Part shown: piece after piece, positions 3,595 through 40,300 of the stretch
Layout of the letters: the number at the start of each line of letters is the position of its first letter
How positions within the stretch are numbered: position 1 is the stretch's first letter
Virus record (IMG/VR): IMGVR_UViG_3300035704_000002
Span: 32,001-96,000 of that record
DNA: 64,000 nucleotides
Source: a virus
Reading direction: 5' to 3' (one strand)
Program-made: the position numbers and the translations under genes
The notes under the pieces: generated by a model
Databases searched by the model: none
Told to the model about the DNA's origin: nothing
What the model saw: only the letters and a program-made list of their open reading frames with translations

Positions 3595-3632
3595 GTCACC
3601 TCCTGTGTGCGGGTGCGTGCGTGCTTGCGGCT

Positions 3633-3661
3633 ATGCTAGCCGAGTTACCCCGGCTGGTCAA
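3633..3661 (-). promoter_or_regulatory. Repeated phage promoter/operator
   Basis: TTGACC-agccggggtaactcggc-TAGCAT. Confidence 0.75.
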
Positions 3662-3670
3662 GCTGGCTGA

Positions 3671-19070: not shown

Positions 19071-19192
19071 GCCGACCAGCGTAGGACGCGCCGGGGGCGC
19101 TCGTGCGCACCTGGGCGCGGCGTACCCGACCAGCCGCAACGCCCCGTTACCCTCGCGCTCGTCCGTGATCGTGGGAGTGGGAGGTGCCCGGC

Positions 19193-20800
19193 GTGGCGCA
19201 GCGGCGGTTCCTACCCGCGCTCCGGCGCATCTTCGCGCCCGCCCTGGAAAGCAAAGGTCTGCCCGAGCAGGTGCGCGCCAGTTCCCAGGCGTACCTCGTG
19301 CCTGGCGTCCCGTACTCGCAGAACTGGTCCACTCAGCGTGCCGTGCGCGAGGCGTACGAGCCGAATCCGCTGGTGTATCGGGCGATCGAGGTACTGGCCA
19401 CCAACGCGATCAGCCAGCGCATCGTGTTGCGCCAGGGTGACCCCGAGGAAGGCCCGATCATCGACACCGCGCACGACCCGACGCGGCTGCTCTACGTGTT
19501 CAACCGCCGCGCCAACCCGTGGGAGACCGCCAGGGTGTTCCGTCACCGGTTGGTGGCGCAGTGGCTACTGTCCTCACGCGGGCTGTTCGTGGAGATCATC
19601 CGCACACGCGGCGGCGGCATCGCCATGGTCAACCTGCTGGACCCCGACCTGGTCGACATGATCCCCGACCGGACCGACCCGATGCACGCCTTCCGGGTAC
19701 GCACCCCGAACTCCTCCACCGGATTCGACTACCTACCCCGCTTCGATCCGGCCAAGACCGCGCGCGAACAGCCCGCCTCCATCCTGTGGATGCGCAACCC
19801 GCACCCGACTGTGGCGTGGCAGGGCATGAGCCCGGTGCAGGCCGCCGGCCTGCCGATCGACCTGGATCGTTACGCCCGGCTCTACAACCGCCGATTTCTA
19901 CAGAACGACGGCCGGCCCGGCGGCCTGCTCTCGATCAAGGGTGTCGTGGCGCCGGCCACCATGGAGCTGATCCAGAGCCAGTTCATGGGCGGCCCCGACT
20001 CGGCCGGCCGTACCACCGTGATCAACGCCGACTCGGTGTCCTACGCGGACACCAGCGGCTCGCCCCGTGACACGCTCTGGGGCGACACGATGGACCGCAA
20101 CCGGCGCGAGATCTGCACCGCGTTCGGGGTGCCCGAGAGCGTGCTGGGCGACGCGTCCGGCCGCACCTTCTCCAACGCCGACGCCGAATACGCGATGTTC
20201 TGGGAACACCGCATGCTGCCGCTGGTGCGGGCGCTAGATGACCAACTCGACATCCTCACCGAGATCATGGGGCCGGATGTCTATTTGCGTCACGATGTGT
20301 CCAAGGTGTGGGTGCTGGGTCGCTACCAGCGCGAGCACGAGGACCGTCTGGCCGCCGACCAGCAGGCCGGCTACCGCACCATCGATGAGGTGCGGGTGGC
20401 CAAGGGCGAGAAGCCCCAGAACGTGCCCGCCACCCGCGTGCTGTGGATACCGCCGGGCAAGCTCGCCGTGGCCGACGCGAGTCGTCCGCACGACGCCGAG
20501 GAAGCCGCCGCCGCGCCGATCGGCGGCCCGGTCAACGCCGGCTCGGCCGGCTCCGGCGCCGCTCAGGCCGGCGTCAACCACCTGTCCGGCTCGGGCTACA
20601 GCGCCGGAGACACCGACTATCTGGGCAGCGGCAAGGGTGGCGGCGGCAACTCCGACCTGCGTTTGCTGTCCGGCTCCGGCGGCGGCCGGGCCGGTGGCGG
20701 CTTCGAGAACATGGGCGAGATCGACCCGGACGAACTGGAGGGTAAGCAGAGCGGCCCGCGACGCTGGGGCTCCCCCAGTGGAGCCCGCATCGCCGGTTAA
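19193..20800 (+). CDS. HK97-family portal protein
   Basis: VYRAI..LA, GMSPVQAA, FLQNDGRPGG, EICTAFGVP..LG..TFSNA, TIDEVR; SD GGAGG. Confidence 0.93.
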   Translation: MAQRRFLPALRRIFAPALESKGLPEQVRASSQAYLVPGVPYSQNWSTQRAVREAYEPNPLVYRAIEVLATNAISQRIVLRQGDPEEGPIIDTAHDPTRLLYVFNRRANPWETARVFRHRLVAQWLLSSRGLFVEIIRTRGGGIAMVNLLDPDLVDMIPDRTDPMHAFRVRTPNSSTGFDYLPRFDPAKTAREQPASILWMRNPHPTVAWQGMSPVQAAGLPIDLDRYARLYNRRFLQNDGRPGGLLSIKGVVAPATMELIQSQFMGGPDSAGRTTVINADSVSYADTSGSPRDTLWGDTMDRNRREICTAFGVPESVLGDASGRTFSNADAEYAMFWEHRMLPLVRALDDQLDILTEIMGPDVYLRHDVSKVWVLGRYQREHEDRLAADQQAGYRTIDEVRVAKGEKPQNVPATRVLWIPPGKLAVADASRPHDAEEAAAAPIGGPVNAGSAGSGAAQAGVNHLSGSGYSAGDTDYLGSGKGGGGNSDLRLLSGSGGGRAGGGFENMGEIDPDELEGKQSGPRRWGSPSGARIAG

Positions 20801-23261
20801 CGGCCAAGACCTGCCCGCCATCGCGCCCGCCGACATCACCACCACCGAAGCCCATCCCGCCCCGGCGCCCGGACCCGATCGGGAAGCGCTGGTGCTGGCC
20901 AGCCGGGCACGCATCGACGCCGCCCAGGCCACGATGACCGGCGCCCTGGATGGCTACCTGTCCCGGCTGGACGGCGTGGTCACCTCGCGCGTCAGGGGGC
21001 CGCGTGTGCGCAAGGGCACGCGCTGGTGGGGCGAGAACGCCAAGAGCCTGCACACGCCGATCTCGCTGGGCGGCGTGACCGGCCTGGAGACCAAGGCAGT
21101 GGACACCGGGTACGCGCTGCCGGACAAGCTGGTCGCCGAGGCGGCCGACGTGGCCCGCCCGATCGCGCAGCGAATCGCGCACGACGCCGCGCTGGCCACC
21201 GCCCGGTCGCTGAGTGTGCGTGTGCCCGGCGATCCGGCCGATATCTCGTTCGCGGTGGACCATGTCGCCCTGGAGCAGGCCGTGGATCGGGCCGTGAGCC
21301 GCGTCCAGGCGGTCGCCGACCACCACGCCACCCTGATCCGTGACGCCATCGGCCACGCCGACGCGCACGCCGAAACACTGGACGAACTGCTGGGCCAGGT
21401 GCAGGCCGCGCATGCCCAGGGCGCCGCCTGGGTGCGCATGGCCGGCCGCGCGGTGACCAACGGCCTGATCCAGGATGTGTCCACCGGGCAGGCGCGCGCC
21501 CTGGGCGTCACCCACGCGCAGTGGCTCTGCGTTGCGGCGGACACCAGGGTTTGGGCGCCAGGCGCGATCAATGTCGCTCAGCGATGGAGTGATGAGGGAC
21601 TACTTCGGATCGCGACAGCGCGGACGGTAGGCACCAGAAATATCCTGTCCGTCACCCCGGATCACCCGCTCCTGACTCAACGCGGTTGGATTTCGGCGCG
21701 CGAGATTCACCCAGGAGATCGACTCGTTCGCAGCGCCTTCGCCCAGAGGGAATCGGGGGGTAACCCACACATAGAGAATCTTCCAGCCAAGATCAGCGAG
21801 ACGTTCCGCGCGGCGGCGCAACTTCGCCCGACCGAGCGGATTATGCGCGTTGCGCCATACTTCGATAGCGACAGGCGCGGCAGCTATGTCGATGTTGTAC
21901 CGATCGACAGCGAGCTGCGGGACTGTCTGCAATCCGCGTTCCATGAGCCACGCGCTCAACTGCTGCTCACCCTCTCCGACCTTGACTTGGAGGGCTTGCT
22001 TGAGCTTCGCTCGTTCCGCCACCACGGCATCAGGTTGGCGTCGTCCAACGTTGAGTCCCGCCAGAAAAACGTTGCGCCCAGCAGTAATGTCGACAGCCTC
22101 ATGAGCGATACGGTTGAGACCAGCGGCCGAGTGGCTCCGCCAGGTGATGCCACGCTCCGTTACGATGAGCTTGATCATTTTGAGGGAAGTGTCGAATTCG
22201 ACCGCCAGTGCTCGCGCGGCACGCCCCGCGACGTATCCGGCGACGATGCCTTCCTTGTCCAGTACGCGACGGTTCCAGCGCAGCGCTTGCGCGGCCCTGG
22301 ACTGCTCGGTAGCTTCGGGGTGAGTCGCGAAGCGGATACGAACGGCTTGCTCGGGGGATCGCAGGACACCAATGTCGCGCAGCCTTCTCCTGATGGTTTC
22401 CGCGCTGACTCCCTCCAGAGTTTCCGCGATCTCGCGGGGCGATTCTCCGATTTGGTAACGCTGGACCAGGTTGTCGATGTCGAGTTCGATCCGACCCCTT
22501 GTCACGTGTACGACCTCCAGACGGAAACTGGCTGGTTCGTAGCCGATGGTTACGTCGTACACAATAGTCGCCGTGACGAACACGTGCGCCCCACCCACGT
22601 GCGGGCCGACGGCCAGGTGCGCGAACTGGGCGCGCCGTTCCGAGTGGGCACGGTCGACCTCGCCTATCCGTGCGATCCGGCCGGACTACCCGACACCTGG
22701 CCCGAGGTGGCCGGCTGCCGATGCGGCCTCCTGTTCCGCGCGCCGGCCGCCGACCACGCCCGCGCCCTGGGCACCCTGTCGACCACCCGGCCCAGCCGCG
22801 CTGGGCCGGGTGCGTTGGCCCTGCTGGCGGCCGTGGCGGCTGGGGGCATCGCGGTACACGAGGTGGCCGCGCCGTTGGGGGTGGCCGGTGGCCCGGACGG
22901 CGCGCCGCCACCATCCCGGCAAGTCGTGACCCACCAGTCGGTGGTCGGCTACCGCGCGCTGGAGCAGGAGCTGGCGGTGACGCCGGGGCAGTGGCTGCGC
23001 CTGCCCGGCCCGATCGTGCTGGGGTTGAGTGCGCCGAGCCTGTTCGCCGAGGGCGCGCCGGTGCTCTCGGTGCTGATTCCGGCTGGCGTCACGCTGACCG
23101 TGGCCGGCGGCCTGGCGGTACTGGCGGCCGGCACGGCGCTGGAAGTGCTCTCCAACGGTCCGACCGGCGTACAGGTGCAGGTCGCGGCACCGCAGGCGTC
23201 CTACTCGAAACCTACTCGAAACCTTGCCGCCACGGACGCGATCACCGCGCCGGCCACGTGA
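20778..23261 (+). CDS. MuF/gp7-like minor head protein containing an intein (start uncertain)
   Basis: Removing the intein restores QWL|SRRDEHVRPTH..ADGQ...CRC, the MuF motif. Confidence 0.85.
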   Translation: MEPASPVNGQDLPAIAPADITTTEAHPAPAPGPDREALVLASRARIDAAQATMTGALDGYLSRLDGVVTSRVRGPRVRKGTRWWGENAKSLHTPISLGGVTGLETKAVDTGYALPDKLVAEAADVARPIAQRIAHDAALATARSLSVRVPGDPADISFAVDHVALEQAVDRAVSRVQAVADHHATLIRDAIGHADAHAETLDELLGQVQAAHAQGAAWVRMAGRAVTNGLIQDVSTGQARALGVTHAQWLCVAADTRVWAPGAINVAQRWSDEGLLRIATARTVGTRNILSVTPDHPLLTQRGWISAREIHPGDRLVRSAFAQRESGGNPHIENLPAKISETFRAAAQLRPTERIMRVAPYFDSDRRGSYVDVVPIDSELRDCLQSAFHEPRAQLLLTLSDLDLEGLLELRSFRHHGIRLASSNVESRQKNVAPSSNVDSLMSDTVETSGRVAPPGDATLRYDELDHFEGSVEFDRQCSRGTPRDVSGDDAFLVQYATVPAQRLRGPGLLGSFGVSREADTNGLLGGSQDTNVAQPSPDGFRADSLQSFRDLAGRFSDLVTLDQVVDVEFDPTPCHVYDLQTETGWFVADGYVVHNSRRDEHVRPTHVRADGQVRELGAPFRVGTVDLAYPCDPAGLPDTWPEVAGCRCGLLFRAPAADHARALGTLSTTRPSRAGPGALALLAAVAAGGIAVHEVAAPLGVAGGPDGAPPPSRQVVTHQSVVGYRALEQELAVTPGQWLRLPGPIVLGLSAPSLFAEGAPVLSVLIPAGVTLTVAGGLAVLAAGTALEVLSNGPTGVQVQVAAPQASYSKPTRNLAATDAITAPAT
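21528..22565 (+). mobile_element. Intein 1 (346 aa), no recognisable in-frame nuclease
   Basis: Block A CVAADTRV, block B TPDHPLLT, block F VYDLQT, terminal HN followed by Ser. Confidence 0.93.
21600..22505 (-). CDS. HTH-repeat plus DUF559/Vsr-like endonuclease, antisense inside intein 1
   Basis: SD GGAGG 8 nt before GTG; YQIGESPREIAETLEGVSAETIRRRL HTH; E..L..L...PQLAVDRYNIDIA..VAIEV..H..R...L..LGWKILYVW. Confidence 0.85.
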   Translation of the reverse strand: MTRGRIELDIDNLVQRYQIGESPREIAETLEGVSAETIRRRLRDIGVLRSPEQAVRIRFATHPEATEQSRAAQALRWNRRVLDKEGIVAGYVAGRAARALAVEFDTSLKMIKLIVTERGITWRSHSAAGLNRIAHEAVDITAGRNVFLAGLNVGRRQPDAVVAERAKLKQALQVKVGEGEQQLSAWLMERGLQTVPQLAVDRYNIDIAAAPVAIEVWRNAHNPLGRAKLRRRAERLADLGWKILYVWVTPRFPLGEGAANESISWVNLARRNPTALSQERVIRGDGQDISGAYRPRCRDPK

Positions 23262-23565
23262 ACTGACCGGCCTCGTTGCCGTGCACGACCTTCTGCACCC
23301 AGTGGGTATCGGTGCCATCCAGCCACACCTGTCCGTTGACGGGCGTATCCGGGTCGATGGTGCGCGAGCCGTGCGGCAGCCCCCACAGCCGCACGATCAG
23401 CATCGGGAAGACCTGGCCCGGCGCCACGGCGTTGCCTCGGTGGATCAGTTCGCCGGCACCGTTGCGCGCCCGGCGCTGGTGCTCGATCTGGCGTATATCC
23501 TCGACGGTGAGTTGGTAGAGCACGAGTCGGGGCGGATTGGGCAGCGAAGCGTCCTGGGTTCCCAT
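23242..23565 (-). CDS. Conserved small phage protein
   Basis: GN...GQVFPMLIVRLW..VNGQVWLDGTD.HWV...FTWPAR pattern. Confidence 0.7.
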   Translation of the reverse strand: MGTQDASLPNPPRLVLYQLTVEDIRQIEHQRRARNGAGELIHRGNAVAPGQVFPMLIVRLWGLPHGSRTIDPDTPVNGQVWLDGTDTHWVQKVVHGNEAGQFTWPAR

Positions 23566-23671
23566 GTCCGCACGGTAGTCGGACACCTCGATCGTGTCGG
23601 CATGCCGGCCGCGCCGTCGCGCTGGGCTAGATTCACCGCGACGATCACAACTATTACCCAGGAGTAACACG

Positions 23672-24955
23672 GTGGGAGCTGCACCCGAGGTCGCCGACCC
23701 GTGGTCATCCCTGCGTCACACGCTCGAACGCACCAACACCTGGTACACGATGGCGTCGGGACTGGTCAGCGGTGCGCGCAGCCTCTACGCGCACTGGCGG
23801 GAACACAGCACCTTCACCGTGTCGGTGTCCAGCGCCGATCCCGGCTACCAGGACGTGCACGACTGGCTCGTGAACGCCGTACCGCCGGCCCGGCGACGGG
23901 CGCTGATGGTGTGCTCCGGCCAGCCCTATGCCGACTCCTCCGACGCCGTGCCCGCGTCGGACTCGCCGCCGACCGCCAGCGCACCGGTGCGCCTGGCCTA
24001 CGACTCCGGCCACGAACAGACCGTGCTGGTGTCCGGCCGGGCGGTGCGGGTGGCGTTGGCGCGTGGCGAGGACGACAGCGCCGGCTCGGGCGGCATGCGA
24101 CGTGTCCCGCCGGACCGGATCGTGTTCCGATGCCCCAGCCAGGCGGCCCAGCAGGCCGTCATCGACCACCTGATCACGATCATCGGTGACCGTTCGAACC
24201 GGCGCCGGACACCCCAACTGCACGTGCTCTCCTCGTGGGGCGGCTGGACGCGCCGTTCCGACATCCCGCCGCGCAGCCTGGAATCGGTTGTGCTGCGTGC
24301 CGGCCAGATGGAGGAGTTGATCTCTGATCTGGGCGAGTTCCTGAGCGCCGAGACCGAGTACATCCGCAGGGGTCAGCCCTGGCACTACGGCTGCCTGCTG
24401 CAAGGTCCGCCCGGCACCGGCAAGACCAGCATCGTCAAGGCGCTGGCCAGCCACTTCGGCCTGGATCTGTGGCACGTGCCGCTCGGCGACCTCATCAGTG
24501 ACACCAGCCTGTCCACCCTGCTGGCGCAGGTGCATCCGCGTTCCATGCTGCTGCTGGAGGACGTGGACATCTACGCCGCCGCGACCAGCCGCAAGGCCGA
24601 GGCGGAACAGGTGTCGCTCTCGGGTCTGCTCAACGCGCTGGACGGGGTGATCACGCCACACGGCCTGATCATCGTACTGACCAGTAACGAGCCGGCATCC
24701 CTCGATCCCGCGCTGGTCCGGCCCGGCCGCATCGACCGGGTGGAGAACGTCGACCACCTCACCGACGAACAGGCACACCGGCTGTTCGTCACCTTCTACC
24801 AGCAGCCTGCGCGGCTGACCTGGACCATCGCGCCCGAGACCGCCAGCGCCGCCGTCATCGGCGTGTTCAAACACCACCTGCGCGACCCGGACGCGGCCGA
24901 GCGGGCGCTGTGCCGCGCACTGGCACACCAGCCTCCGCTCCCGGTACCGGTGTAG
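23672..24955 (+). CDS. BCS1-like AAA+ ATPase
   Basis: R.LESVVL, GPPGTGKTS, LLEDVD, SLSGLLNALDG, LDPALVRPGRID; SD AGGAG. Confidence 0.9.
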   Translation: MGAAPEVADPWSSLRHTLERTNTWYTMASGLVSGARSLYAHWREHSTFTVSVSSADPGYQDVHDWLVNAVPPARRRALMVCSGQPYADSSDAVPASDSPPTASAPVRLAYDSGHEQTVLVSGRAVRVALARGEDDSAGSGGMRRVPPDRIVFRCPSQAAQQAVIDHLITIIGDRSNRRRTPQLHVLSSWGGWTRRSDIPPRSLESVVLRAGQMEELISDLGEFLSAETEYIRRGQPWHYGCLLQGPPGTGKTSIVKALASHFGLDLWHVPLGDLISDTSLSTLLAQVHPRSMLLLEDVDIYAAATSRKAEAEQVSLSGLLNALDGVITPHGLIIVLTSNEPASLDPALVRPGRIDRVENVDHLTDEQAHRLFVTFYQQPARLTWTIAPETASAAVIGVFKHHLRDPDAAERALCRALAHQPPLPVPV

Positions 24956-25011
24956 CCCCGGATCACCCAGTCGGCGAGCCTGACCGAGAAACCCCGCCGC
25001 ACGCTGCCACG

Positions 25012-28000
25012 ATGTCGCGCGTGGCGAACCGAGACCCCGAAGCAGACGGCCCGCGCACCTCGGGCATGGTGGCGCTGATGCCCACGGCGGCCGATGCCCA
25101 ACGTCTCGCCGTGGACGGCGGCGAAGACCCCGACCAGTTGCACCTCACGCTGGCCTACCTCGGTGACAACGCCACCGGCCTGCCGCCGGAAACCCAGCAG
25201 GCACTCCATCAGGTGATGGGGCACCTGGCAGCCGAGACACCGCCGGTGGACGCCCGCGCCGCCGGGCATCTGCTGCTGAATCCCGACGGTGGCCCGGACG
25301 GTGACCGCACGCCCGTGGCGGCCTACCTGATGTCCGACTCCGACGCGCTCACCCCGCTGCACGAGGCGGCGAAGGCGGCGGCCGGCGCGGCCGACCCGGC
25401 CCTGACCCAGTTCTCGCCGTTCATCCCGCACGTGTCCGGCGCCTACGACCGCGACGCCGGAGCGCTGGGCTACGCCGGACCGGTCAGCTTCGACCGGATG
25501 CGGGTAGCGATCGGCGACGGGCACACCGACTACCCGCTGACCGGCCCGGCGTCCGGGGGCACCGATCCGGATGCCGACGGCGACATTGATGACGGCACCG
25601 GCGTGAACACCGACGACGACCCCACCGTGGGCGATGACGGCGCCAGGTCCGACAAGCCGGAGGGCAAGTCCGTGATCAGCCTGGCCGAGTTGGTGGAGCT
25701 GGCCGAACTGACCAACCTGGTGAGCGAAACCAAGGGCGACGCCCCCGACGGCGGCAACTCCGACGCGCCGCCCCACTCGATGCCCGACGGCAGCTACCAG
25801 ATCAACCATCCCGGCCAGCTCAAGCAGGCCATCAACGCGCTGACCGCCTACCAGGTCGCCAAGGGCAAGCGCGGGGCGCTGCGCAAGCATGTGATGAAGC
25901 ACGCCGCGCGATTGCACGCGCAGAACATGGTGCCACAGTCCATTCAGGACGAAGGCGACGACGACCCCGACGCCAAGAAGGACGCCGCGCCGGAGCCGGT
26001 CGAGACGAAGAACGTCGTGGCCACCCAGGCCGGCGTGGCCAGGTACGGCAAGCCGATCGGGACCGTGCTGGGCGCGCCGCGTGATGCCGCCGCCGCGCAG
26101 GCGCAGAAGGACACCGGCGCGGTCACCGCCTACCAGGATCTGCTCGCCGGTAACACGCGGAGCGTGGAACCGCTGAACACGATGGACCCCAGCAGCCTCG
26201 AAGCACTCACGCGCGTCGCCTACAGCTACAAATCCTCCGATCCGAAGGTCGTGGCACTGCGCGTGCAACTGGCCAACGAGCTGGCCAAACGCGGCCTGAA
26301 GGTCACCAGTTTCGGCGCCCTGGGCGGTGGCGGACCGACCAAGCCCGCCAGGGGCAAGGCGCCGGTCAAGCCGAAGGCGCCCGCGAAGCCGGCCCCGACT
26401 CCAGCGCAGGTTGCCGGCGCGCGCGGCGTGGCCGCGCCGCACGTCCAGGCCAAGGGTGATCTGGACGTCACGGAGGTGGAGTACAAGACGAAGTACACCG
26501 CTGATGACCGGCGCACCATGGCCAAGAAGGGGCAGGCGCTGCCGGATGGTTGCCTCTCTGGTGACACGTTGGTGGCAACTCGCAATGGCTCCGTCCGCAT
26601 TGACGCCCTCCCGTCTGAGTGCGAATTGCTAACTGATCACGGGTGGACGCAAGCTACTGTCTGCGGATTTGGAGTACAGAAACTGCGAGCTGTTGAACTG
26701 TTTGACGGTGTGCGAACCGAGATCGTCCACGCTACGTCAGGTCACAGATGGCTGATTGATGGTGGCGACTGGAGACTCACAGACGATCTGATCGTTGGCG
26801 ACCGCATTCCCCATGTTGATGTATCGAGCAATGATTTCAATGCCGACCTCGTCAACACGGCCCATCAGCGTATTGCACGTAAGGCAAAGCAGACCCCGCA
26901 CCATTCCAGTGCGATGGTCGTGATCAACCTGGAAGCCGGTCCATGTACGACCGGTACGAGTGTTGGCACGATTGATCTTCGGGATGCGATGACAGATAGC
27001 ACACAGGCCGCGCTGACTGGCAAGAAGTGCGTCGAACTCCGCTTGTCCAATGCTGTACTTGCGCCGCAGCATTCCATCTCGGCGACGCATCCAGCGCTCA
27101 TCGGCAACATCCACCCGTTCAGCGCTGGTGCGTGCTCTGTTTTGGCAGCAGAAACGGCAGTCGGTTCGCCGACGCTGATTGCGGATATAGAAATCGGTAT
27201 GCGGTCGTTCGGCGCCGCAGGTGCGGCAGGTGACAAAACCGACATAGCCGACTGGTACACCCTTGGCGTAAACGGACACGGTCATCCCACGAATGCTACC
27301 CGTTCGTGGGAGGTTGTGGGTATCAAAGCCACGCGCCGCATCGAGGAGGTTTTTTGCGCACTGGTTCCAGACTTGCACCGGTTTGTACTAGCCAGTGGCG
27401 TTTTGACCGGAAATAGTTATCCGATCATGGACCGGTCCGACCTGGACTCCGCGATCCGACTACGCGGACGGCACAGCGAATACTCCGCCGATACGGTCGT
27501 CAAGCACATCGTCAAACGCGCCAAGGCGATCGACGCCACCGACATGCTGCCCGACGGCATGGCCGCCGGGGTGCAGGAGAAGCAACTGTCCTGGGACGGC
27601 GCGCCGGACGCGTTCACGGCCGGCGTGCTGCTCGGCCTGTCCGGCCTGGACACCGACGAAGCGCTGGAGCTGAAGGCCGGCCCGCCGGGACACACCTTCG
27701 CCTCGCCCGACCCGAACGCCGCACGGCTGCGCCGGTACTGGGTGTTCGGCAAGGGACGCGCAAAGATCAACTGGGGTGTTCCGGGCGACTTCGACCGCTG
27801 CGTCGCGGAACTCACCAAGTACGTCGGCGACCGCGCCAAGGGCTTGTGCAACATCTACCACCGCTCCGCGCTCGGCGTCGCGCCCGGCCAGGAGGACAAG
27901 CCCGGCCACGCCGTCGCCAAGGCCGTGGGTGCCATGGTGGGTGCCAAGAAGTCCGAGGACGACGAGACCGAAACCAAGGCGCTGACCGCGTTGTGGGTAC

Positions 28001-28755
28001 GCGACCCGGCCGCCGTGGACGGGTGGCGTGCCTACGCGCCCGCGTGGCCACTGGATGACGACCTGATCGCGGAAATGAAAGCGTTGCGTCCCAACAAGCC
28101 CAGCGGTGGCTACGTCGGGGCCGACGACGAGGAGGACAGCCCCGACGGCAACGCGCCCGACGATACGAACAACACCGACTCGGGCACCGACGACGACGTA
28201 CTGTCCGCGCTGGACAACTATGCCGCCATGGCACCACAGATCAGCCCCGAAGACGCCTACATGCAGGCCATCGGCGACCAGATCCCCTGGCAACTGGCCG
28301 CCACCGGCGATCTGGTCAACCCCGACTCGCCCGGTGGTGAAGTGCCTGTGCTACAACGCGAGGAAGCGCGGTTCGGTGAGGCCGGACCGTCCGACGCGGC
28401 CGTGGACGACCTGTCCGGCACCGACGAGGTACCCGACGCCGACGACGCCGGGGCGGATGACGACCCCACCTTCCCCGATGACGGTGATCTGAGCTTCGAC
28501 CCGGACGATACGAACGAGACCGATGACGGCACGGATGGCCCGGATGACGGCGCCGGGGACACCGGCGACGGTTCGAACGAGAGCGACACCGGCGCCGCCA
28601 TTCCGGAGGTGGCCGAACTGCTGGCCGACCTGATGGCCGAACAGGACACGGTGGCCGCGCCGACGGATGACGACGATGCTGGCGAGCCGGAGGAAGACAG
28701 CACGGCGATCACTACCGCCCCGAAGCGCCAGGCCGCCGCCAGTGTTACCGCGTAA
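25012..28755 (+). CDS. Multidomain head-associated protein: 2H phosphoesterase, repeated modules, intein, acidic tail
   Basis: HLTL (25141) and PHVS (25429); two PDGSY.I modules; YW..GKG.AKI.W..PGDF.RC module. Confidence 0.8.
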   Translation: MSRVANRDPEADGPRTSGMVALMPTAADAQRLAVDGGEDPDQLHLTLAYLGDNATGLPPETQQALHQVMGHLAAETPPVDARAAGHLLLNPDGGPDGDRTPVAAYLMSDSDALTPLHEAAKAAAGAADPALTQFSPFIPHVSGAYDRDAGALGYAGPVSFDRMRVAIGDGHTDYPLTGPASGGTDPDADGDIDDGTGVNTDDDPTVGDDGARSDKPEGKSVISLAELVELAELTNLVSETKGDAPDGGNSDAPPHSMPDGSYQINHPGQLKQAINALTAYQVAKGKRGALRKHVMKHAARLHAQNMVPQSIQDEGDDDPDAKKDAAPEPVETKNVVATQAGVARYGKPIGTVLGAPRDAAAAQAQKDTGAVTAYQDLLAGNTRSVEPLNTMDPSSLEALTRVAYSYKSSDPKVVALRVQLANELAKRGLKVTSFGALGGGGPTKPARGKAPVKPKAPAKPAPTPAQVAGARGVAAPHVQAKGDLDVTEVEYKTKYTADDRRTMAKKGQALPDGCLSGDTLVATRNGSVRIDALPSECELLTDHGWTQATVCGFGVQKLRAVELFDGVRTEIVHATSGHRWLIDGGDWRLTDDLIVGDRIPHVDVSSNDFNADLVNTAHQRIARKAKQTPHHSSAMVVINLEAGPCTTGTSVGTIDLRDAMTDSTQAALTGKKCVELRLSNAVLAPQHSISATHPALIGNIHPFSAGACSVLAAETAVGSPTLIADIEIGMRSFGAAGAAGDKTDIADWYTLGVNGHGHPTNATRSWEVVGIKATRRIEEVFCALVPDLHRFVLASGVLTGNSYPIMDRSDLDSAIRLRGRHSEYSADTVVKHIVKRAKAIDATDMLPDGMAAGVQEKQLSWDGAPDAFTAGVLLGLSGLDTDEALELKAGPPGHTFASPDPNAARLRRYWVFGKGRAKINWGVPGDFDRCVAELTKYVGDRAKGLCNIYHRSALGVAPGQEDKPGHAVAKAVGAMVGAKKSEDDETETKALTALWVRDPAAVDGWRAYAPAWPLDDDLIAEMKALRPNKPSGGYVGADDEEDSPDGNAPDDTNNTDSGTDDDVLSALDNYAAMAPQISPEDAYMQAIGDQIPWQLAATGDLVNPDSPGGEVPVLQREEARFGEAGPSDAAVDDLSGTDEVPDADDAGADDDPTFPDDGDLSFDPDDTNETDDGTDGPDDGAGDTGDGSNESDTGAAIPEVAELLADLMAEQDTVAAPTDDDDAGEPEEDSTAITTAPKRQAAASVTA
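26551..27414 (+). mobile_element. Intein 2 (288 aa), no recognisable in-frame nuclease
   Basis: CLSGDTLV, ATSGHRW, EEVFCALVP..HRFVL, terminal GN followed by Ser; excision restores PDG|SYPI, matching the uninterrupted PDGSYQI copy. Confidence 0.92.
26737..27285 (-). CDS. Endonuclease VII-family nuclease, antisense inside intein 2
   Basis: CRTC..F..CRFC; RKYSI...FDALL..QRGLCAIC; VDHDH.TG.VRGLLC..CN..MG. Confidence 0.92.
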   Translation of the reverse strand: MTVSVYAKGVPVGYVGFVTCRTCGAERPHTDFYIRNQRRRTDCRFCCQNRARTSAERVDVADERWMRRRDGMLRRKYSIGQAEFDALLASQRGLCAICHRIPKINRANTRTGRTWTGFQVDHDHRTGMVRGLLCLTCNTLMGRVDEVGIEIIARYINMGNAVANDQIVCESPVATINQPSVT

Positions 28756-28774
28756 GGACAGGAGGGGCGCCCAC

Positions 28775-31700
28775 GTGGGTACGCCGACGATCATGGGTGC
28801 GGGGCTGCCCGCGTTCCTGGAGTACAAGACCGCACTGTCGGGCGCACCGCGTGAACTGGTCGAACCGGACGCGCCGATGGAGTTCAAGACCGCCGTGCTG
28901 ACCGCGCCGCCGGGCACGGTGCTTCGGCCCAGCGATGTCAGTGCGGACGCGCACGAGGTTACGGCCGTGATCGCGGTGACGGGCGTGCTGGACGAGGTGG
29001 GCGACGTGATCGTGCCGGGTGCGTTCGCCGACACGCTGCGCGAGCGGCCTCGGCCGAAGGTCTGCCTGGGTCACGACTGGAACCGGCCCATCGGTAAGAC
29101 GAAGTGGATCAAGGAACTGTTGCCGGGTGACCCCGGCCTGCCGCCGACCACCTATGACGGTAAGGCGTGGCCCGCCGAGGCCGGCGCCGTGCTGGCTCGT
29201 TACGTCCCGGACATGTCCACTCCGGATGGCAACAACGCCTACCACAGCGCCAAGTTCTTCGGCCCCGAGGAATCCACGTTCAGCTTCGGCTACAAGACAC
29301 AGAACTCCGAGCGCCGCAACGGCAGGCGCTACCTGAAGAAGCTCGCCGTGTACGAGTACGGCCCGGTGCTCAACCCGGCCAACCGGCTGGCCACGTTGCA
29401 GGAGATCAAGACCGACGAGCCGGACAGCCTGGAAAGCAAGGTCAAGCAGGTTCGTGACGTCGCGTACTGGGGCGAACCCTACGGCTCGCCGATCGGCGAG
29501 CACACGCACCCGCACGGGCCGAAGGCGCGGGCCGAGCGCCGGGCCGGTCGCGTGCCCTCCCGCTCGGTCGGCATCATGGAGCCCGGACACGCACCCCCCG
29601 TCGCACCCAAGATCAGCACGGCGGATCGTGCCGCCGAGATCGAACACACCGGCCTGTTCCCCGAGCCGGCGTCCGCCGCGCGCGCGCTGCCCGGTCCGCG
29701 CGCCACCGGCGCGGACCAGCAGCACATCGACGCTCTCGCCGGACACATCCGTGACGGGCTGGCCGAACCGGAGGCCGACGACGAAGACCGCGCCGCCGTC
29801 GACAAGGCGGTGCGCGGCCTGCTCACCGAGGCCATCACCCCGAACGAGGTGCACGACCGGCTCGCCGCCCATCCCGAGATCACGGCCGGCGCCGACGCGC
29901 ACAACGAGGCGGTGGACCGGGTCGGCCGCGACTACGCGGCGCGCTACGGCGCCCTGGCCGCCGAGCAACAGCGCGTGCGCACGCAGGCGGGTACGCCGCT
30001 GCCGCCGGAGCGGTTCACCGGGATGACCAACACCCAACTGCGCGGACACGAGAACGCCAGCCAGCAGATCCTGAGCGACCTGACCACATCGGGCGTCGGC
30101 CACGACGAACCGTCCGCACAGCTCGCCTCGGCCAACATCCAGGGCGCCCAGCACGAGATGGCGCTACGCGCGCGGGCCGCGCGTGAACATCCGGCCGTGC
30201 TCAAGGCGCACGCGCAGGGTGAAGCGCTGTTCCGCAAGAACCCGGCGCAGGCCGCGACGCGCGCCGATGCGATGCAGTCGGTACTGGAGGAGCTGCACCG
30301 CCAGCAGGCCGTGAAGCCACCACCGCAGGGCAGCCGCGCGGAGCGGATGCCGCACCAGATCCAGGCCATGATGCGGGGTCTGCGTGGCGTGTCGGGTGGC
30401 AGCAAGGAGACGCCACTTCCCTCGACTAACCGAGCTGAGCCGGCTAGTGTAGAGAGCATGCCCGAGGAGCCCGCCAAGCCAGCCCGCCGCATCCTGAGCG
30501 ACTTCAGCGACGCCGAACTGGCGAAGGAGAAGGACAAGGCCGCCCACACCGTGTTCATCCACGCGCAGCGGCCCGATGGCGCGCGTGCCCGAAAGCGCCT
30601 CGCTGCTATCCAGGTCGAACGAGACCGACGCAACGACGCCGCCCGACGCAGCGTGCCCGCCCACTCACTGGCGCCCGCCGACTACCAGGCCGCGCAGGAT
30701 CACGCCCTGAACACCCGGTTCGCGCAGCAGGAGATGACGCGGCAGAACGATCAGGTCGACAAGCACAACGCCCGCATCACCAGCGCCGAACAGACCGCCG
30801 CCAGCGCGCCGGCCACGATCGACCACGCGCCCGAGGGCACCGAGATCGTCGGCGGCGGTCGGCTACTGCTGGCCAATGGCACCACCAACTCCTGGTCCCT
30901 GCGCAGCGCGGACAACAAGCACCTGCTGGGTGCCGACGACTTCGCCACACTGAAAGGCGGCAAGGCGAAGCTGAGTCGGGCCAAGATCAACGACCTGGCC
31001 GACCACGTCGCCGGCATCCGTGACAGCAATGGCAACCGGGTGCCCTTCACCGCGCCCAACTCCGCCGACTGGGCGCCCGGCTTCCGCGACGAGCACGGTA
31101 ACAACCTGGTCGGCGCGAGCGCCCTGGCCGTGCGGGACTGGACCGGGCGTAACGGCGTCGGCGTGCACAAGAACTCACGATTCGCCCGTAACGTCACGCC
31201 GGCCGGCGGTCGCCTCTCCCGCACCGACAAGCCCGACGCCGACGGCTTCTATCCACGCCAGCCCATCGGCAACGCCCGACCCGGCGACGAGGTCACCACG
31301 CCCGACGGCCACGTCAAGACCGTGGTGCGCACCTCGCGCGCCGAGCACACGCACGACACGCGCGGCAACTACGTCCAACCCTCGCACCGCACCTCCACCA
31401 CCACGCTGCACTTCGGCGACGACACCAGCCACTCCGAACAGCGCAACGACTACGGCGGCAGGGGCACCATCGGCATCCGGTACGCCAACGGCGCCTCGCC
31501 GATGGACGCCTCGCGCGCGGCCGACCCCGGCATGGGCTTCACCTCCGCATCCAACATCGGCAGCCGACCCGGCAGCATCGACACCCCCTCGGCCAAGAAG
31601 TTCGACCAGGAGGCCGCCACCGCGCTACGCAACACCCCCGCCCCCGGCACCCGGTTCACCGAAGCGCGCAGCGAAGGGCAGGACTACAAAGATCAGCGAC

Positions 31701-33403
31701 CGAAGGTCGGCACGATCACCGATCGCGTCGGTCAGGTCCAGGGCGCTCCGGCCCGCGTGGTCGAGTACGACGACGGCACTTTCGACGCCATGACGCCGGC
31801 CGGCCTGGGCAAGATCAACGCTTCGCCCAGCGAAGATGAGGTCAACGAAGCGCGCTCCGCGTGGGGACTGCCGCGCACCGGGTCCGACCACGCCACCGAA
31901 GCGGCGCGCGCCGCCACTGAGGCCGCCGCGCCCGATCGTGCCGAACCGCGCCGGGTGGCGCCCAGCGAAGTGCCAACCCCGAAGACCCCGAACGTGCCCG
32001 AGATAGGCGCGCCGGCCGAAACCCATGCCAACGCGCTGGCCCGGATGAACGACCGGCAGGCGCGCGAGCACATCGCCACGTTGCCGCACAGCACACTGAG
32101 CGGCATCGACCAGGTCATGGCGCACCGCGCCAGCGCACTGGGCAAGCCCGACGTCGTCACCGCCAAGCACCAGATGGTGCGTGACGCCATTCCGGCCGCG
32201 TCCGGATCAGCCGTGGTAACCGGGCCAATGCAGGACGAGATGGCACAAGCCCGCTCCGAGGTGCTGGGACTGCACGAACTTCCCGACGGCCATCTGGAAG
32301 TCGAGCCCGAGGTGGGCGCCCGCCAGGACCGCGTGGCCAAGCTGCTCACCGAGCACGAGGCCGGCGCGCTGGACCTGAAGTCGCGCAGTACGGAAGACCT
32401 GCACCAGCATCACCGTGACCTGTCCAACGAACTGCGCCTTCAGCAGGAAATCGCCCGCCGCGACGCCGTGCACCCGCCCAAGCGTGTGTCGGTGGCCACC
32501 ACACAGGCCGGCACCCCACGCGTGCGGCCCGGTCTGGCCGGCGCTGCCCAGGATCACGCCGAAGCCCTGCGGTCCGAGGACGCCGCCGCGATCAACCGCA
32601 CGCGGCAGCGACTGGAGTCCGCGCTACGCCGCTCACGCGCCAACTCCGACACCGCGCACACCCTGGCGCAGCATGTCGACGCTGGCCACGCCCACGCCTC
32701 GACCCTGGACTCCCTGGCCGGCAGCCTGCGCGCCGAATCCCGTCAGAAGCGCAACGACGCCGCGCGCAAGCGCACCACCGCCAAGCGACTGGACCGCGAA
32801 CGCATCACCTCGGTACTGGGCAGCGTGAACTCCGAACTGCGCAGCCGGGGCGAGTCACCGGAGGTGGCCAAGGAGCTGGGCGCGCCGCGCACCGCGAACA
32901 CCCCTGAGACACCGCTGATGTCCGAGGGGCCGGTACTGCGCGAGGTGGTCGGGGGGCCAGGTGCCGTGCGGCAGGTGGCCAGCGAAGAACCGAAAGCCGA
33001 ACCGGTCGCCACCGCCAACAACGCCAACGTGTCCCACGTCTTGCATAGTGTCCCATCGTGGGATAGTATTAAGGAGTCAGCAGGAACTCAACCTGAAGGA
33101 CCCCCAATGGCCACCGCCGCCCAGGTTCGCTACGCCACAAAGCTCCAGGCAGACCTCCGCGAACGCATCACCTGGCCCCTGGACCGCGACATTCTCGCCC
33201 GCGCACTGCGCCCCCCAACCGCAAACATGCTCGCCAACCCCGAAGATAGGGCCGCTGCACGGGCCGCGATCGAGGCATACGACCCCAACGCCGCCATCGA
33301 CGCCTGGATCGCCCGCCGCGCCGATCTGGCCGACACTGATCTGGCCACCTTGGACGGCACTCAGATGTCCGCCTGGATCGACGCCGTCAAGAAATCCTTG
33401 TGA
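28775..33403 (+). CDS. HK97-type prohead protease with very long C-terminal extension
   Basis: D.VGDVI.PGAF, HDW.RPIG, FSFGY, YEYGPV..PAN; SD AGGAGG. Confidence 0.88.
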   Translation: MGTPTIMGAGLPAFLEYKTALSGAPRELVEPDAPMEFKTAVLTAPPGTVLRPSDVSADAHEVTAVIAVTGVLDEVGDVIVPGAFADTLRERPRPKVCLGHDWNRPIGKTKWIKELLPGDPGLPPTTYDGKAWPAEAGAVLARYVPDMSTPDGNNAYHSAKFFGPEESTFSFGYKTQNSERRNGRRYLKKLAVYEYGPVLNPANRLATLQEIKTDEPDSLESKVKQVRDVAYWGEPYGSPIGEHTHPHGPKARAERRAGRVPSRSVGIMEPGHAPPVAPKISTADRAAEIEHTGLFPEPASAARALPGPRATGADQQHIDALAGHIRDGLAEPEADDEDRAAVDKAVRGLLTEAITPNEVHDRLAAHPEITAGADAHNEAVDRVGRDYAARYGALAAEQQRVRTQAGTPLPPERFTGMTNTQLRGHENASQQILSDLTTSGVGHDEPSAQLASANIQGAQHEMALRARAAREHPAVLKAHAQGEALFRKNPAQAATRADAMQSVLEELHRQQAVKPPPQGSRAERMPHQIQAMMRGLRGVSGGSKETPLPSTNRAEPASVESMPEEPAKPARRILSDFSDAELAKEKDKAAHTVFIHAQRPDGARARKRLAAIQVERDRRNDAARRSVPAHSLAPADYQAAQDHALNTRFAQQEMTRQNDQVDKHNARITSAEQTAASAPATIDHAPEGTEIVGGGRLLLANGTTNSWSLRSADNKHLLGADDFATLKGGKAKLSRAKINDLADHVAGIRDSNGNRVPFTAPNSADWAPGFRDEHGNNLVGASALAVRDWTGRNGVGVHKNSRFARNVTPAGGRLSRTDKPDADGFYPRQPIGNARPGDEVTTPDGHVKTVVRTSRAEHTHDTRGNYVQPSHRTSTTTLHFGDDTSHSEQRNDYGGRGTIGIRYANGASPMDASRAADPGMGFTSASNIGSRPGSIDTPSAKKFDQEAATALRNTPAPGTRFTEARSEGQDYKDQRPKVGTITDRVGQVQGAPARVVEYDDGTFDAMTPAGLGKINASPSEDEVNEARSAWGLPRTGSDHATEAARAATEAAAPDRAEPRRVAPSEVPTPKTPNVPEIGAPAETHANALARMNDRQAREHIATLPHSTLSGIDQVMAHRASALGKPDVVTAKHQMVRDAIPAASGSAVVTGPMQDEMAQARSEVLGLHELPDGHLEVEPEVGARQDRVAKLLTEHEAGALDLKSRSTEDLHQHHRDLSNELRLQQEIARRDAVHPPKRVSVATTQAGTPRVRPGLAGAAQDHAEALRSEDAAAINRTRQRLESALRRSRANSDTAHTLAQHVDAGHAHASTLDSLAGSLRAESRQKRNDAARKRTTAKRLDRERITSVLGSVNSELRSRGESPEVAKELGAPRTANTPETPLMSEGPVLREVVGGPGAVRQVASEEPKAEPVATANNANVSHVLHSVPSWDSIKESAGTQPEGPPMATAAQVRYATKLQADLRERITWPLDRDILARALRPPTANMLANPEDRAAARAAIEAYDPNAAIDAWIARRADLADTDLATLDGTQMSAWIDAVKKSL
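30422..30450 (+). promoter_or_regulatory. Internal promoter-like site in the protease ORF
   Basis: TCGACT-aaccgagctgagccggc-TAGTGT, in-frame ATG at 30458. Confidence 0.5.
33041..33069 (+). promoter_or_regulatory. Internal promoter with operator-like repeats
   Basis: TTGCAT-N17-TAGTAT; GTGTCCCA twice; TCCCA-N3-TGGGA palindrome. Confidence 0.7.
33107..33403 (+). CDS. Small protein nested in frame at the 3' end of the protease ORF
   Basis: Own promoter, SD GAAGGA and ATG; MATAAQVRYA...SAWIDAVK. Confidence 0.65.
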   Translation: MATAAQVRYATKLQADLRERITWPLDRDILARALRPPTANMLANPEDRAAARAAIEAYDPNAAIDAWIARRADLADTDLATLDGTQMSAWIDAVKKSL

Positions 33404-37388: not shown

Positions 37389-40300
37389 GTGGCGACGAAG
37401 GTAGCTCAAACCGACTGGGTGCACGCCAAGTCCGGTGGTGCCAGCTTCTCCGTTACGATCCCCACTCCCGCGACCGGTCATACATTGATCTTCACCTCGG
37501 CCGGCGGCGCTATCGCCACCCCGGCCGGCTTTACGCGCGCGCCCGACGCGCCCTACGGCGGCGGCACCCAAGATGTGAGCATCTGGTACAAAACCGCCAC
37601 CGGCCTGGAAACCCTGGTCGCGGTGACGCTCAACGGGTCCGGCGACAACGTCGGCGGCACGATCATGGAGTTCTCCGGCTCGCTGAGCTACGCCACCGGC
37701 AGCAACAACGGCACCGGTGTCAGCATCAGCTCCACCAGCGATTTTCAGGTAGCCGCCAGCGGCGCCACCGTGTCCGCACAATCTCTGGCCATCGCGGTGT
37801 TCTCCGTTGGTCAGTCCACTGCCTGGTCGCAGTCCAACCAGTGGCGGCAGATGGGGCCAGCCGGCGCGCTCGTACGGTCGGCCGGCGCCCAGGACGCCAG
37901 TGGCTTCGCCTCGATCTTCGCCGTCGGCATCGCCGACATCGACGCCAGCCACCAGTACCCGCCGCAAGCCTCCACCGGGCACTACTCGGCCACCTCGATC
38001 TACCAGGCCAGCGGTCCCGGCACCGCCTTCGCCTGTCAAGCGATCTTTACCGACACGTCCGGCGTCGCCACCGTGTCCTTCGCCAACAGCATCGTCAAGG
38101 AAAATTCGCTGCCTGGCACCGACAACGGCAACTGGATGCTGGGCACCGCCGGCACCGACGCCACTATCGCCGGATTCCCGACAACCCCTTCCGTACAGCC
38201 CGGCGGTACTGTCAACTTCAAGGTTGGTTGCGCATTCACGTTCCGCGCCGAGATATACCGACTTGGGTTCTATGGATACGACAACTTCGGTGCCCGCAAC
38301 GTGCTGGGCAATCAGGCCGGCTACCTGACCGGTACCGTCGTGAGTCAACCGACTCCAGCCGTGGACGGCACACTGGGGTCGACCTCGTGCGCGGCGTGGA
38401 CAACGAACGTCACGTGGAGCGTGCCGTCCGACGCGGTACCCGGCGTCTACTACGTGATCTTCAGACGCACCGACGCGGGCAACACCAGCAAGGCCGCCAG
38501 TACGCACTTCGTGGTTCGAGAATCCTCACCCTCGGGCAAGATGGCCATCGTCATCCCGGATCTCACCCACCACGCCTACAGCGTCTGGGGCGCCATCACC
38601 GACCACGGGGACCTCTCCACGGGCACGTGGACCGGCCGGTCGCTGTATCAGACCGGCTCGGACGGTTCCTCGTCCAACATCGCGCACCGTGCCTACGCGG
38701 TGTGCCTCGATCGGCCCTACAGCGTGCAGTCCACTCAGGAGCCGACCTACATCTTCGATTCGGAGTTCGGTTTCATCCAGTTTTGCGAGGCGCAGGGATA
38801 CAACCTCACCTACCTGTCCGACATGGATCTGGAAGGTAGCTCAACCCTACTGAACTCGGCCGCCATGGTGCTCATGGTCGGCCATCACGAATACTGGACA
38901 GCCAACATTTTCAGCGCTTTTCAAAACGCGGTCGCTGCTGGCGTCAACACGTTCGTCTACTCCGCGAACACGGCCGGGTGGCGCGTGCGGTTCGCGTCAG
39001 CGGACACCAACAAGCGCACCGCGATCTGCTACAAGGACGGCATCACCCGCGACACGAGCGCCGGCTGGAGCGGTACCGGTTATGACCCGCTCACTCCGAC
39101 CGGCACGTGGCGCGATTCCGGCGCCACCAACGGCATCGCCAACCCCGATCGGCGGCTGGACAACACCCTGACCGGTCAACGCTTCATCGGCAGCGGCCCG
39201 CTGCTCGCGCCGATGCAATTCGCCAACACCGTCAAGACCAAGCCGATCTGGCGAAATTCACCAGCGGTGCAGGCGCTGGCCAGCGGTACGCACGTCACCG
39301 ACATCAGCAACTCGATCGGCTACGAGCTGGACGCCGCCGACGGCGCGACCGGCCAGCCCTCCAACCTCGTCATCGTGGCCAGTACCAGCATCTCGGTCAC
39401 CACCGGCGCCAACGCGGCCGGCACCGTCTACACCACCTCGGCCACCCTCACCGCGACCTGGACCCTGTACCGCGACGGCACGTCCGGCGCGCTGGTGTTC
39501 AACACGGGCAACTGGCGCTCCTGGTGGTCGGCCACCCGCTGGCACGGCTCCAGCCCGGTCGGCAGCGTCAGCATCGACGTGATCAACGCGCTGCTGGCCA
39601 TCCTCTACGACCTCGGCGGCACGCCGCACACACTCACCGCGCTGGAGCCCGGCGCCGACACGACGCCCACCGACCCGGCCACCGGTGCGCCCACGGCCGG
39701 CAACGCCAACGTGGCACTGGCCTATGGCCTCACCGCCAGCAGCACCGTGCTCGGTGCCGCCACGCTATCGGCCACCGGCGCACTGACCGCGACCGCCGTG
39801 GACGTCGTATCCGCCAGCGCCGCCCTGTCCACCACCGGCGCCATCGGCGCCGCCGGCCTGGCCATCGACCTGGGCGCCACAGCACTGTCGAGCACCGGCG
39901 CCCTGGGCACCACGGGCACCCTGGGCGCGGCCGGCGCGACCACCCTCGCGGCCACGCCCGCGCTTGGCGCGGCGGCCACCAGGGGGACCGGCGCCACCGT
40001 AGTGATGAGTTCCGCGCCCGGCCTCGGCGCGGCACCCATCGAGACCGCCGTGAGCAGTGCCGCACTGAGCAGCGCGCCGGCCCTCACCGCGACCGCCACG
40101 CAGACCAGCGGCGCCAGTGCCGCACTGAGCAGCGCGCCGGCCCTCACCGCGACCGCCACCCGCACCGCGCTGGGCACCGTCACCCTGGCCACCACGCCTA
40201 CCGTCACCGCGACCGGCACCCAGACCCTGACCGGCGCCAGCGTGGTGTTGAGCGCCACGCCCGTGTTGAGCGCGGTCCCGATGGCCACGCTGGGTGCCGC

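Follow-up and report, generated by a model that had tools for sequence, protein, structure and literature searches.

Endonucleases encoded outside the reading frame of the intein that houses them have been reported before. The oldest report concerns the antisense LAGLIDADG endonucleases of the Ssp DnaX and Chloroflexus SpoVR-like inteins (Gorbalenya, 1998; Gogarten, 2002; both through Gosselin, Arsenault and Gogarten, bioRxiv 10.1101/2025.01.02.630785, where Gorbalenya is cited for the first antisense case), and the dnaX intein endonuclease has been termed 'out-of-frame' in a 2026 preprint (10.64898/2026.09.14.751524). For actinophages, antisense VSR-like and LAGLIDADG homing endonucleases (HENs) have been described within inteins, together with an endonuclease VII (EndoVII)-like HEN found only in frame 3 of the sense strand; minor capsid inteins had only non-canonical HENs, and the proposed model is capture of free-standing HENs (Gosselin et al., 2025). 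A different arrangement, in which fractured genes with split inteins are accompanied by free-standing Vsr-like homing endonuclease genes, with hairpins upstream of endonuclease start codons, was described by Dassa (2009; PMC2677866). Statements about these sources refer to excerpts of their text. Here, we analyze a stretch of 64,000 nucleotides (the window), bases 32001-96000 of the IMG/VR virus record IMGVR_UViG_3300035704_000002, a 128,202 bp genome with direct terminal repeats that is rated 100% complete, in which two genes each contain an intein with a nuclease reading frame on the opposite strand. Both are very probably contiguous inteins of class-1 type, with the homing endonuclease encoded by a separate gene on the opposite strand and not by an in-frame domain.

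The features concerned are as follows; a slash within a protein motif marks a splice junction or insertion site.

20778-23261, plus strand: host gene 1, MuF-like minor capsid/head morphogenesis protein with intein, from PHROG head, portal, and head-morphogenesis matches
21528-22565, plus strand: intein 1, 346 amino acids (aa), WL/CVAADTRV...VVHN/SRRD, with Cys1, block B TPDH, block F HVYDLQT, an HN end, and +1 Ser
21600-22505, minus strand: nuclease gene 1 (Vsr-like/EDxHD), 301 aa, stop 21600-21602, likely start GTG 22505-22503, recognized from fold, homologs, and wobble pattern
24910-28755, plus strand: host gene 2, 1281 aa with intein, a LigT/2H-like N-terminal region followed by a head maturation protease/scaffold-like part, from PHROG matches
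26551-27414, plus strand: intein 2, 288 aa, DG/CLSGDTLV...LTGN/SYPI, with Cys1, block B TSGH, a GN end, and +1 Ser
26737-27378, minus strand: nuclease gene 2, EndoVII with a Cys-rich N-terminus (PF02945), stop 26737-26739

Both elements fit the layout described by Gosselin et al. (2025), an unbroken sense frame enclosing a complete antisense HEN open reading frame (ORF; counted from GTG 22505 for nuclease 1). Intein 1 resembles their cases in being contiguous, in lying in a MuF-like minor capsid gene, in carrying an antisense Vsr-like nuclease with extra helical DNA-binding parts, and in having a sense insert without a recognizable fold; the published HEN matches 1CW0 at Z 10.6 and also 3R3P, the corresponding scores of nuclease 1 being 10.2 and 9.7. 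The best cultured-phage relatives of nuclease 1, from the Gordonia phages Vivi2, Angelicage, and Affeca, belong to the same data set, from which it differs by its identity of only ~33%, its origin in an uncultured 128-kb soil phage, and its insertion site QWL/SRRD, many relatives being inserted at N/CRC. The intein 1 element is a further member of a published class, and high novelty of the arrangement, which an earlier reading of the sequence alone (the original prediction) could not confirm against the literature, is not supported, antisense-encoded intein endonucleases being already in print.

Intein 2 stands further from the described cases. The HEN types reported as antisense in the excerpts, LAGLIDADG and VSR-like, include that of nuclease 1 but not that of nuclease 2. 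Nuclease 2 is of the same family as the frame-3 EndoVII-like HEN and, like it, is nested in an intein as a separate ORF, but differs in lying on the opposite strand and on the same triplets, and its host gene (protease/scaffold-like, DG/SYPI) falls outside the four host types listed there for non-canonical HENs. The MuF intein of Keitabear, considered for a direct comparison with that EndoVII-like HEN, gave no match to the nuclease 2 protein (P0004). An antisense EndoVII in an intein was not found in a search of the open literature, to which subscription journals and the supplements of Gosselin et al. (2025) were external; the antisense EndoVII, the host gene, and the insertion site of intein 2 look unreported. 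The excerpts of that preprint are also silent on codon register, wobble selection, and ribosome-binding sites ('ribosom' and 'start codon' each occur 0 times), so far as they go, and the mirrored ribosome-binding site and universal codon-on-codon register set out below may be new details.

Like the DnaX and SpoVR-like cases, both elements place the endonuclease outside the intein reading frame and are open to the same secondary-invasion model; unlike those LAGLIDADG enzymes of cellular hosts, the nucleases of the window are of other families and belong to a phage. The systems of Dassa (2009) likewise tie the Vsr-like/EDxHD family to inteins in phage genes, but there the host gene is in two ORFs, whereas here the host frame is whole and the nuclease antisense. 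A fractured gene with a split intein was considered for the window and is highly improbable: the sense frame is stop-free through both inteins, as it is in 72/72 relatives of the first element and three of the second, and the nucleases are on the opposite strand.

Inteins, nuclease frames, and their translation signals

The limits of the inteins, 21528-22565 and 26551-27414, are exactly those first proposed, and the claim of intact splicing blocks holds for both, the N-terminal nucleophile (Cys1), block B TxxH motif (TPDH and TSGH), C-terminal Asn, and +1 Ser all being present. Intein 1 matches Pfam Intein_splicing at E 3.8e-7, below the cut-off, and has relatives of 43-51% identity over the full length. 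In the AlphaFold model of intein 2, residues 1-96 and 250-288 have a predicted local distance difference test score (pLDDT) above 90 and match mini-inteins, and Foldseek returned 19 matches at E<=0.001, all listed ones being inteins. The sense insert between these lobes, residues 97-249, is predicted to be disordered (pLDDT <35, no secondary structure), and a Pfam scan of both sense inserts gave 0 families at E<=1, in keeping with the statement that neither sense insert holds a recognizable nuclease.

Opposite intein 1, the minus-strand ORF (21600-22598) is open up to GTG 22598. Structure and profile comparison assign to its product N-terminal helix-turn-helix repeats followed by a C-terminal Vsr-like/EDxHD nuclease. 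The Pfam match is weak (REase_MTES_1575, E 2.4e-5, below the cut-off), and the fold comes from an AlphaFold model built on a 17-sequence alignment (pLDDT 81.9), residues 176-294 of which match Vsr (1cw0_A) at Z 10.2 with a root-mean-square deviation (rmsd) of 2.6 over 109 aligned residues; I-Bth0305I (3r3p_A) follows at Z 9.7, rmsd 3.0, and 91 aligned residues. I-Bth0305I, reportedly the subject of Taylor (2011), is itself a homing endonuclease of the Vsr-like/EDxHD family. The same two structures ranked top in Foldseek, at E of just 0.02-0.04 and with no match at E<=0.001, and were recovered in a profile search of the PDB (3r3p_A, E 0.0025; 1cw0_A, E 0.0079). D208, E217, and W243 are invariant in the 17 sequences, and the Glu, a candidate active-site residue, aligns with the I-Bth0305I Glu in a hidden Markov model alignment.

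The likely start of nuclease 1 is preceded by a further feature:

22514-22518, minus strand: GGAGG Shine-Dalgarno-like motif, 8 nt before GTG 22505, reverse complement of the block-F D-L-Q codons

Across the relatives of this element (family 1), the antisense of block F reads GGAG(G/A), 8 nt, and then ATG or GTG, mirroring the H-V-Y-D-L-Q codons, and start and Shine-Dalgarno motif are both present in 25/31 loci. The sense codons involved are strongly biased. In 53 distinct loci the block-F Leu is CTC in 50, compared with 371/1140 Leu codons (33%) in the rest of these cores, and the block-F His is CAT in 43, compared with 41% in the rest, while the adjacent Val, Tyr, Gln, and Thr codons vary freely at synonymous sites. 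A bias confined to these two codons, with scrambled neighbors, argues that the antisense gene is translated from GTG 22505. The RNA fold of the region before this GTG gave no significant structure (z +0.62). If the mirrored ribosome-binding site is true, a sense-synonymous change of the Leu codon should abolish nuclease translation and leave the intein untouched.

Nuclease 2 is recognized directly by Pfam Endonuclease_7 (PF02945; E 5.2e-17, 62 bits, cut-off 23.6) and by PHROG endonuclease VII families down to E 1.3e-24. It contains the motifs CAIC, VDHDH, and GLLCLTCN, and C95, C98, D121-H124, C134, C137, and N138 are invariant in 7 sequences; the Cys pairs and the D-H...N motif we take to be zinc-binding and catalytic residues. 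Among its best cultured-phage matches is F-CphI of Synechococcus phage S-PM2 (31% identity over 77%, E 1e-13), an annotated EndoVII-type homing endonuclease of the same family that is free-standing and not in an intein. The opposite strand thus encodes complete nucleases of two families, as had been asserted, and the description of the pair as unrelated was equally sound, since BLASTP detects no relationship between the two inteins (E 0.38) or the two nucleases (E 0.16).

There are two candidate starts for nuclease 2, GTG 27378 (213 aa) and ATG 27285 (182 aa); the shorter form matches PF02945 at E 4.7e-17, and in L005, a related virus contig, the nuclease ORF can start only at the ATG equivalent to 27285. 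Upstream of this ATG lies the following:

27286-27310, minus strand: 8-bp inverted repeat holding TAGCAT (27298-27293), 7 nt before ATG 27285, present in the minimum-energy fold

TAGCAT is a candidate -10 element of a leaderless transcript, and a TANNNT hexamer occurs at this 7-nt spacing from the ATG in the window as well as in L005 (TAGGCT in the latter). Terminator-like sites numbered 4, against 2.9 expected. The His codon of the intein motif DLHRF in the second family mirrors a possible antisense start, paralleling the HVYDLQT His of family 1; the mirrored codon is GTG in the window (27378) and L005 and ATG in L006, and in the called protein P0026 it corresponds to Met1.

Recurrence, codon register, and selection on the antisense frame

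Single-protein queries of virus contigs, made with P0004 and P0003 (nuclease 1), gave nothing, and relatives were found by alignment queries. For family 1, 83 loci were fetched, of which 10 are intein-less and 73 intein-bearing, and an antisense nuclease 1 homolog is present in 72 of the latter, the only miss being a truncated locus; in all 72 the register is identical and the host frame stop-free. The relatives of intein 2 (family 2) include three virus contigs, L005, L006, and L007, that carry an antisense EndoVII of 48-56% identity, in the same register and with a stop-free host frame (3/3). The suggestion that two cases within 6 kb pointed to a recurring architecture is supported. For three further homologs known as proteins only (P0006-P0008), 64-74% of columns have sense residues that an antisense EndoVII would allow, against a null of ~21%, a figure that is an upper bound and not proof. 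The DG/S(Y/F)PI insertion site is common to P0006-P0008 and L005-L008.

The nested state is one of several for EndoVII, the 17 loci of its relatives in virus contigs comprising 3 antisense-nested, 2 sense-nested, and 12 free-standing genes. L008 carries an intein (3055-3918) at a DG/SF.I site, and its EndoVII gene (3419-3853, plus strand), whose product has 30% identity to P0004, lies not antisense but in a sense-strand frame one base out of step. L201 and L203 have sense-strand EndoVII genes nested in ORFs that are 626 and 739 codons long. When metagenomes and GTDB were scanned with query A1, 98 loci were obtained with 0 EndoVII matches, and a tblastn search of phages with the sense protein of intein 2 gave no match. 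In L009, L010, and L011, which came from the virus scan, the Hint domain is related to that of intein 2, but the host gene is a different one and the insert is LAGLIDADG-like and in frame; the L010 intein ends in Gln, not Asn.

Nuclease 1 also has relatives outside the actinophages. In Klebsiella phage KpTDp1 (L095) and Pseudomonas phage vB_Pae_BR313c (L096), coding sequences labeled 'hypothetical protein' are MuF-like with an intein (N/CRC or N/CKC), each with an unannotated antisense nuclease 1 homolog, and 38 Salmonella phage records also match. In the GenBank/RefSeq entries for Vivi2, Angelicage, KpTDp1, and BR313c, the host gene is the only one listed. By this account an unannotated opposite-strand nuclease gene is present in hundreds of phage head genes.

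In both elements of the window the minus-strand ORF shares the sense triplets (21528 and 21600 are both 0 mod 3; 26551 and 26737 both 1 mod 3), as originally noticed. In 16 genes of this phage, stops in the same-triplet antisense frame number 0.72 per 100 codons, compared with 2.1 and 3.8 in the other antisense frames and 2.64 and 1.25 in the shifted sense frames. An open antisense frame is by itself weak evidence in so stop-poor a register, and the ORFs might be mirror artifacts or dead relics whose conservation only reflects selection on the sense strand. Such an explanation draws support from the exteins, whose antisense frames are likewise open for hundreds of codons, from the ends of nuclease 1, where antisense motifs mirror intein blocks B and F, and from the 11/72 family 1 loci in which the antisense match holds at least one stop, some of these stops lying upstream of the true start and others marking what may be decaying copies. 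Against it stand the EndoVII match above the Pfam cut-off, the confident Vsr-like fold, the predicted disorder of the intein 2 sense insert, and the lower G+C content of the inserts relative to the exteins, so that open frames are less expected there.

The pattern of substitution discriminates further. For family 2, the window, L005, and L006 were compared in an alignment built on the sense protein. At sense positions 1/2/3, the differences amount to 0.40/0.40/0.65 in the N-terminal splice region and 0.30/0.28/0.62 in the C-terminal one, whereas under the nuclease ORF they are 0.575/0.35/0.44; sense position 1, the antisense wobble position, is the most variable in the insert only, and the pattern flips back in the splice regions. 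In family 1 (63 loci) the corresponding values are 0.544/0.295/0.409, with sense position 1 the most variable in 146/146 pairs. Selection on the minus-strand frames, which the original prediction had put forward for checking, is thus visible in both families as a fastest-changing antisense wobble base. Of the two frames, the antisense one is the better conserved: P0003 matches Gordonia phage Vivi2 at E 6e-28 in the antisense frame and 8e-15 in the sense frame, and P0004 and its counterparts in L005-L007 are 48-56% identical in the antisense frame and 33-39% in the sense frame. G+C content at codon positions 1, 2, and 3 inside the inserts carried no strand signal. Taken together, homology, wobble pattern, and conservation across relatives show that the minus-strand ORFs are genes, and we consider a mirror or relic origin very unlikely.

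A number of points weigh against reading both elements as inteins with working antisense nucleases. The wobble-test pairs are phylogenetically non-independent, and the family 1 extein control is uninformative, its 15 sequences having almost no pairs in range. Conservation at both nuclease 1 ends is in part a mirror image of intein blocks B and F. In intein 2, as in its relatives, the usual penultimate His is replaced by Gly. The predicted disorder of the sense insert was modeled for intein 2 alone, the fold evidence covering that intein and the intein 1 sense frame having been assessed by Pfam only. Nuclease 2 may start at GTG 27378 or at ATG 27285; no good Shine-Dalgarno motif precedes ATG 27285, the hairpin there is not significant (z -1.48; 14/200 shuffles fold as well), and a sigma-70 promoter scan, which covers actinobacterial promoters poorly, found 0 sites.

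The register itself had been attributed to high G+C content, an account that is only partly upheld. The same-triplet register is indeed the most stop-poor of all alternative frames in this phage, but G+C at third codon positions (GC3) is 0.59-0.69 in the inteins versus 0.85-0.90 in the exteins, which marks the inteins as compositionally foreign, and relatives with insert G+C down to 0.41 retain the register. Its persistence must then stem from descent and double constraint and not from base composition, although the stop-poor register favors reverse capture as a tendency at the time of capture. A 'least-stop frame' rule for sense-strand nesting was also entertained and dropped, as the host frame, taken relative to the nuclease, is +2 in L008 but +1, a stop-rich frame, in L201 and L203.

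Mobility and proposed mechanism

Precise intein-less alleles exist for both host genes. Ten intein-less gene 1 homologs (L017, L019-L027) join residues 250/597 of the called gene 1 product (P0014) exactly, in L019 at 1815/1816, and gp79 of Arthrobacter phage Talia1610, an intein-less gene 2 allele, reads EDG/SLPI. L006 and L007 differ at 1/933 intein positions compared with 117/3725 flanking positions (Fisher p 1e-10). The identical tract (L006:2998-4061) reaches ~60-70 nt into the exteins on each side, beyond which the flanks are ~3% different, as would be expected after homing or gene conversion accompanied by co-conversion. The two contigs are rearranged relative to each other upstream of ~2480. 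Contigs of a soil run (X2) include identical pieces on the exteins, with little or no cover on both inteins, and none bridges the intein sites, so that they carry no information on an intein-less allele.

Alternatively, the nucleases could be working phage genes with a role other than intein mobility; an EndoVII in the intein linker could, for instance, serve as a packaging junction resolvase. T4 gp49 is an EndoVII-type junction resolvase acting in DNA packaging, the 128-kb genome contains no EndoVII match other than nuclease 2, which is located in the head-assembly module, and annotated free-standing EndoVII genes are common in actinophages. However, the closest relatives of nuclease 2 that were found (48-56% identity) travel with the intein in 3/3 virus contigs, its top phage matches include the annotated homing endonuclease F-CphI, the homing-like tract of L006 and L007 is confined to the intein and its immediate borders, and intein-less alleles of the host gene exist. 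A phage function unconnected with mobility is improbable on this evidence, if somewhat less so than a mirror artifact.

The data directly show the anatomy, the folds, selection on the antisense frame, the recurrence, and the precise intein-less alleles. Under our preferred reading, inteins with separate opposite-strand homing endonuclease genes, we infer the following from them for transcription and translation of the antisense strand, for cleavage specificity, for homing, and for the order of events at the origin. Late head-gene mRNA would be translated straight through each intein, and the two Hint lobes would fold and splice the host protein, the middle of the sense product forming a flexible linker at the place where inteins normally house an endonuclease. 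On the minus strand of the same triplets, the nuclease would be made from its own message, possibly uncoupled from the late transcript as the original prediction supposed, in the case of nuclease 1 from a ribosome-binding site and start codon that mirror the block-F motif HVYDLQ. Where a co-infecting relative has an intein-less allele of its host gene, each nuclease would then cut it, and repair would copy intein and nuclease gene together (homing).

The element may have arisen when a free-standing nuclease gene was captured in reverse by a mini-intein, after which any frameshift would break either host protein or nuclease, so that the register would be frozen. Backward invasion of a mini-intein, as the original prediction pictured it, is made plausible by the 12/17 EndoVII relatives that are free-standing, and by the occurrence elsewhere of the intein-2-type Hint domain with canonical in-frame LAGLIDADG inserts, but is not proven. 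The endonuclease slot of an intein can evidently be filled by a gene read backwards, which supports the view of intein origins in which splicing came first and the nuclease was captured later. The loci are also clean natural examples of antisense dual coding over long stretches (546 to 903 nt), the strand under selection being clear at each position.

A further proposal, which we hold to be evenly balanced between true and false, is that the intein and its antisense nuclease gene have become, by co-evolution, a single mobile unit spanning both strands, taken jointly with three corollaries. First, the antisense-EndoVII intein at DG/S(Y/F)PI in head protease/scaffold genes may be an undescribed class that is still homing, in view of the tract shared by L006 and L007. 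Second, the 21-nt block-F stretch of the Vsr-like class may be under two constraints, splicing for the intein strand and the start of translation for the opposite one. Third, the codon-on-codon register may be a general rule for reverse nuclease capture by inteins.

Host genes and genomic setting

Among DNA runs, the stretch is near-complete only in one soil metagenome, no RNA run is listed for it, and a DNA megablast of 20238-28755 against phages gave no match. G+C content is ~70% across the region, and its dips to 0.61 and 0.57 coincide exactly with the two inserts.

Host gene 1 lies in a long ORF (20238-23261) of 1007 aa that overstates the gene; the called product, P0014, has 827 aa, starts near 20778, some 180 codons in, and matches PF14890. 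The first ~180 codons of the ORF (20238-20800) are Pro/Ala/Arg-rich and overlap another ORF, 19184-20800.

Host gene 2 matches phrog_2659, phrog_18402, and phrog_6439, the PHROGs at its N-terminal side being named RNA ligase and head maturation protease and its C-terminal part matching a PHROG family of unknown function. The 'RNA ligase' match, phrog_2659, falls at the start of the gene (24910-25550; E 8e-30, residues 46-211), and Pfam gave no match to this N-terminal region at E<=0.01. The region contains two H-x-T/S motifs, HLTL and HVSG, presumably the pattern of LigT-type 2H phosphoesterases, here joined to a head protease/scaffold-like part. The head genes are followed downstream by two plus-strand ORFs of great length, 28667-33403 (1578 aa) and 37389-41744 (1451 aa).

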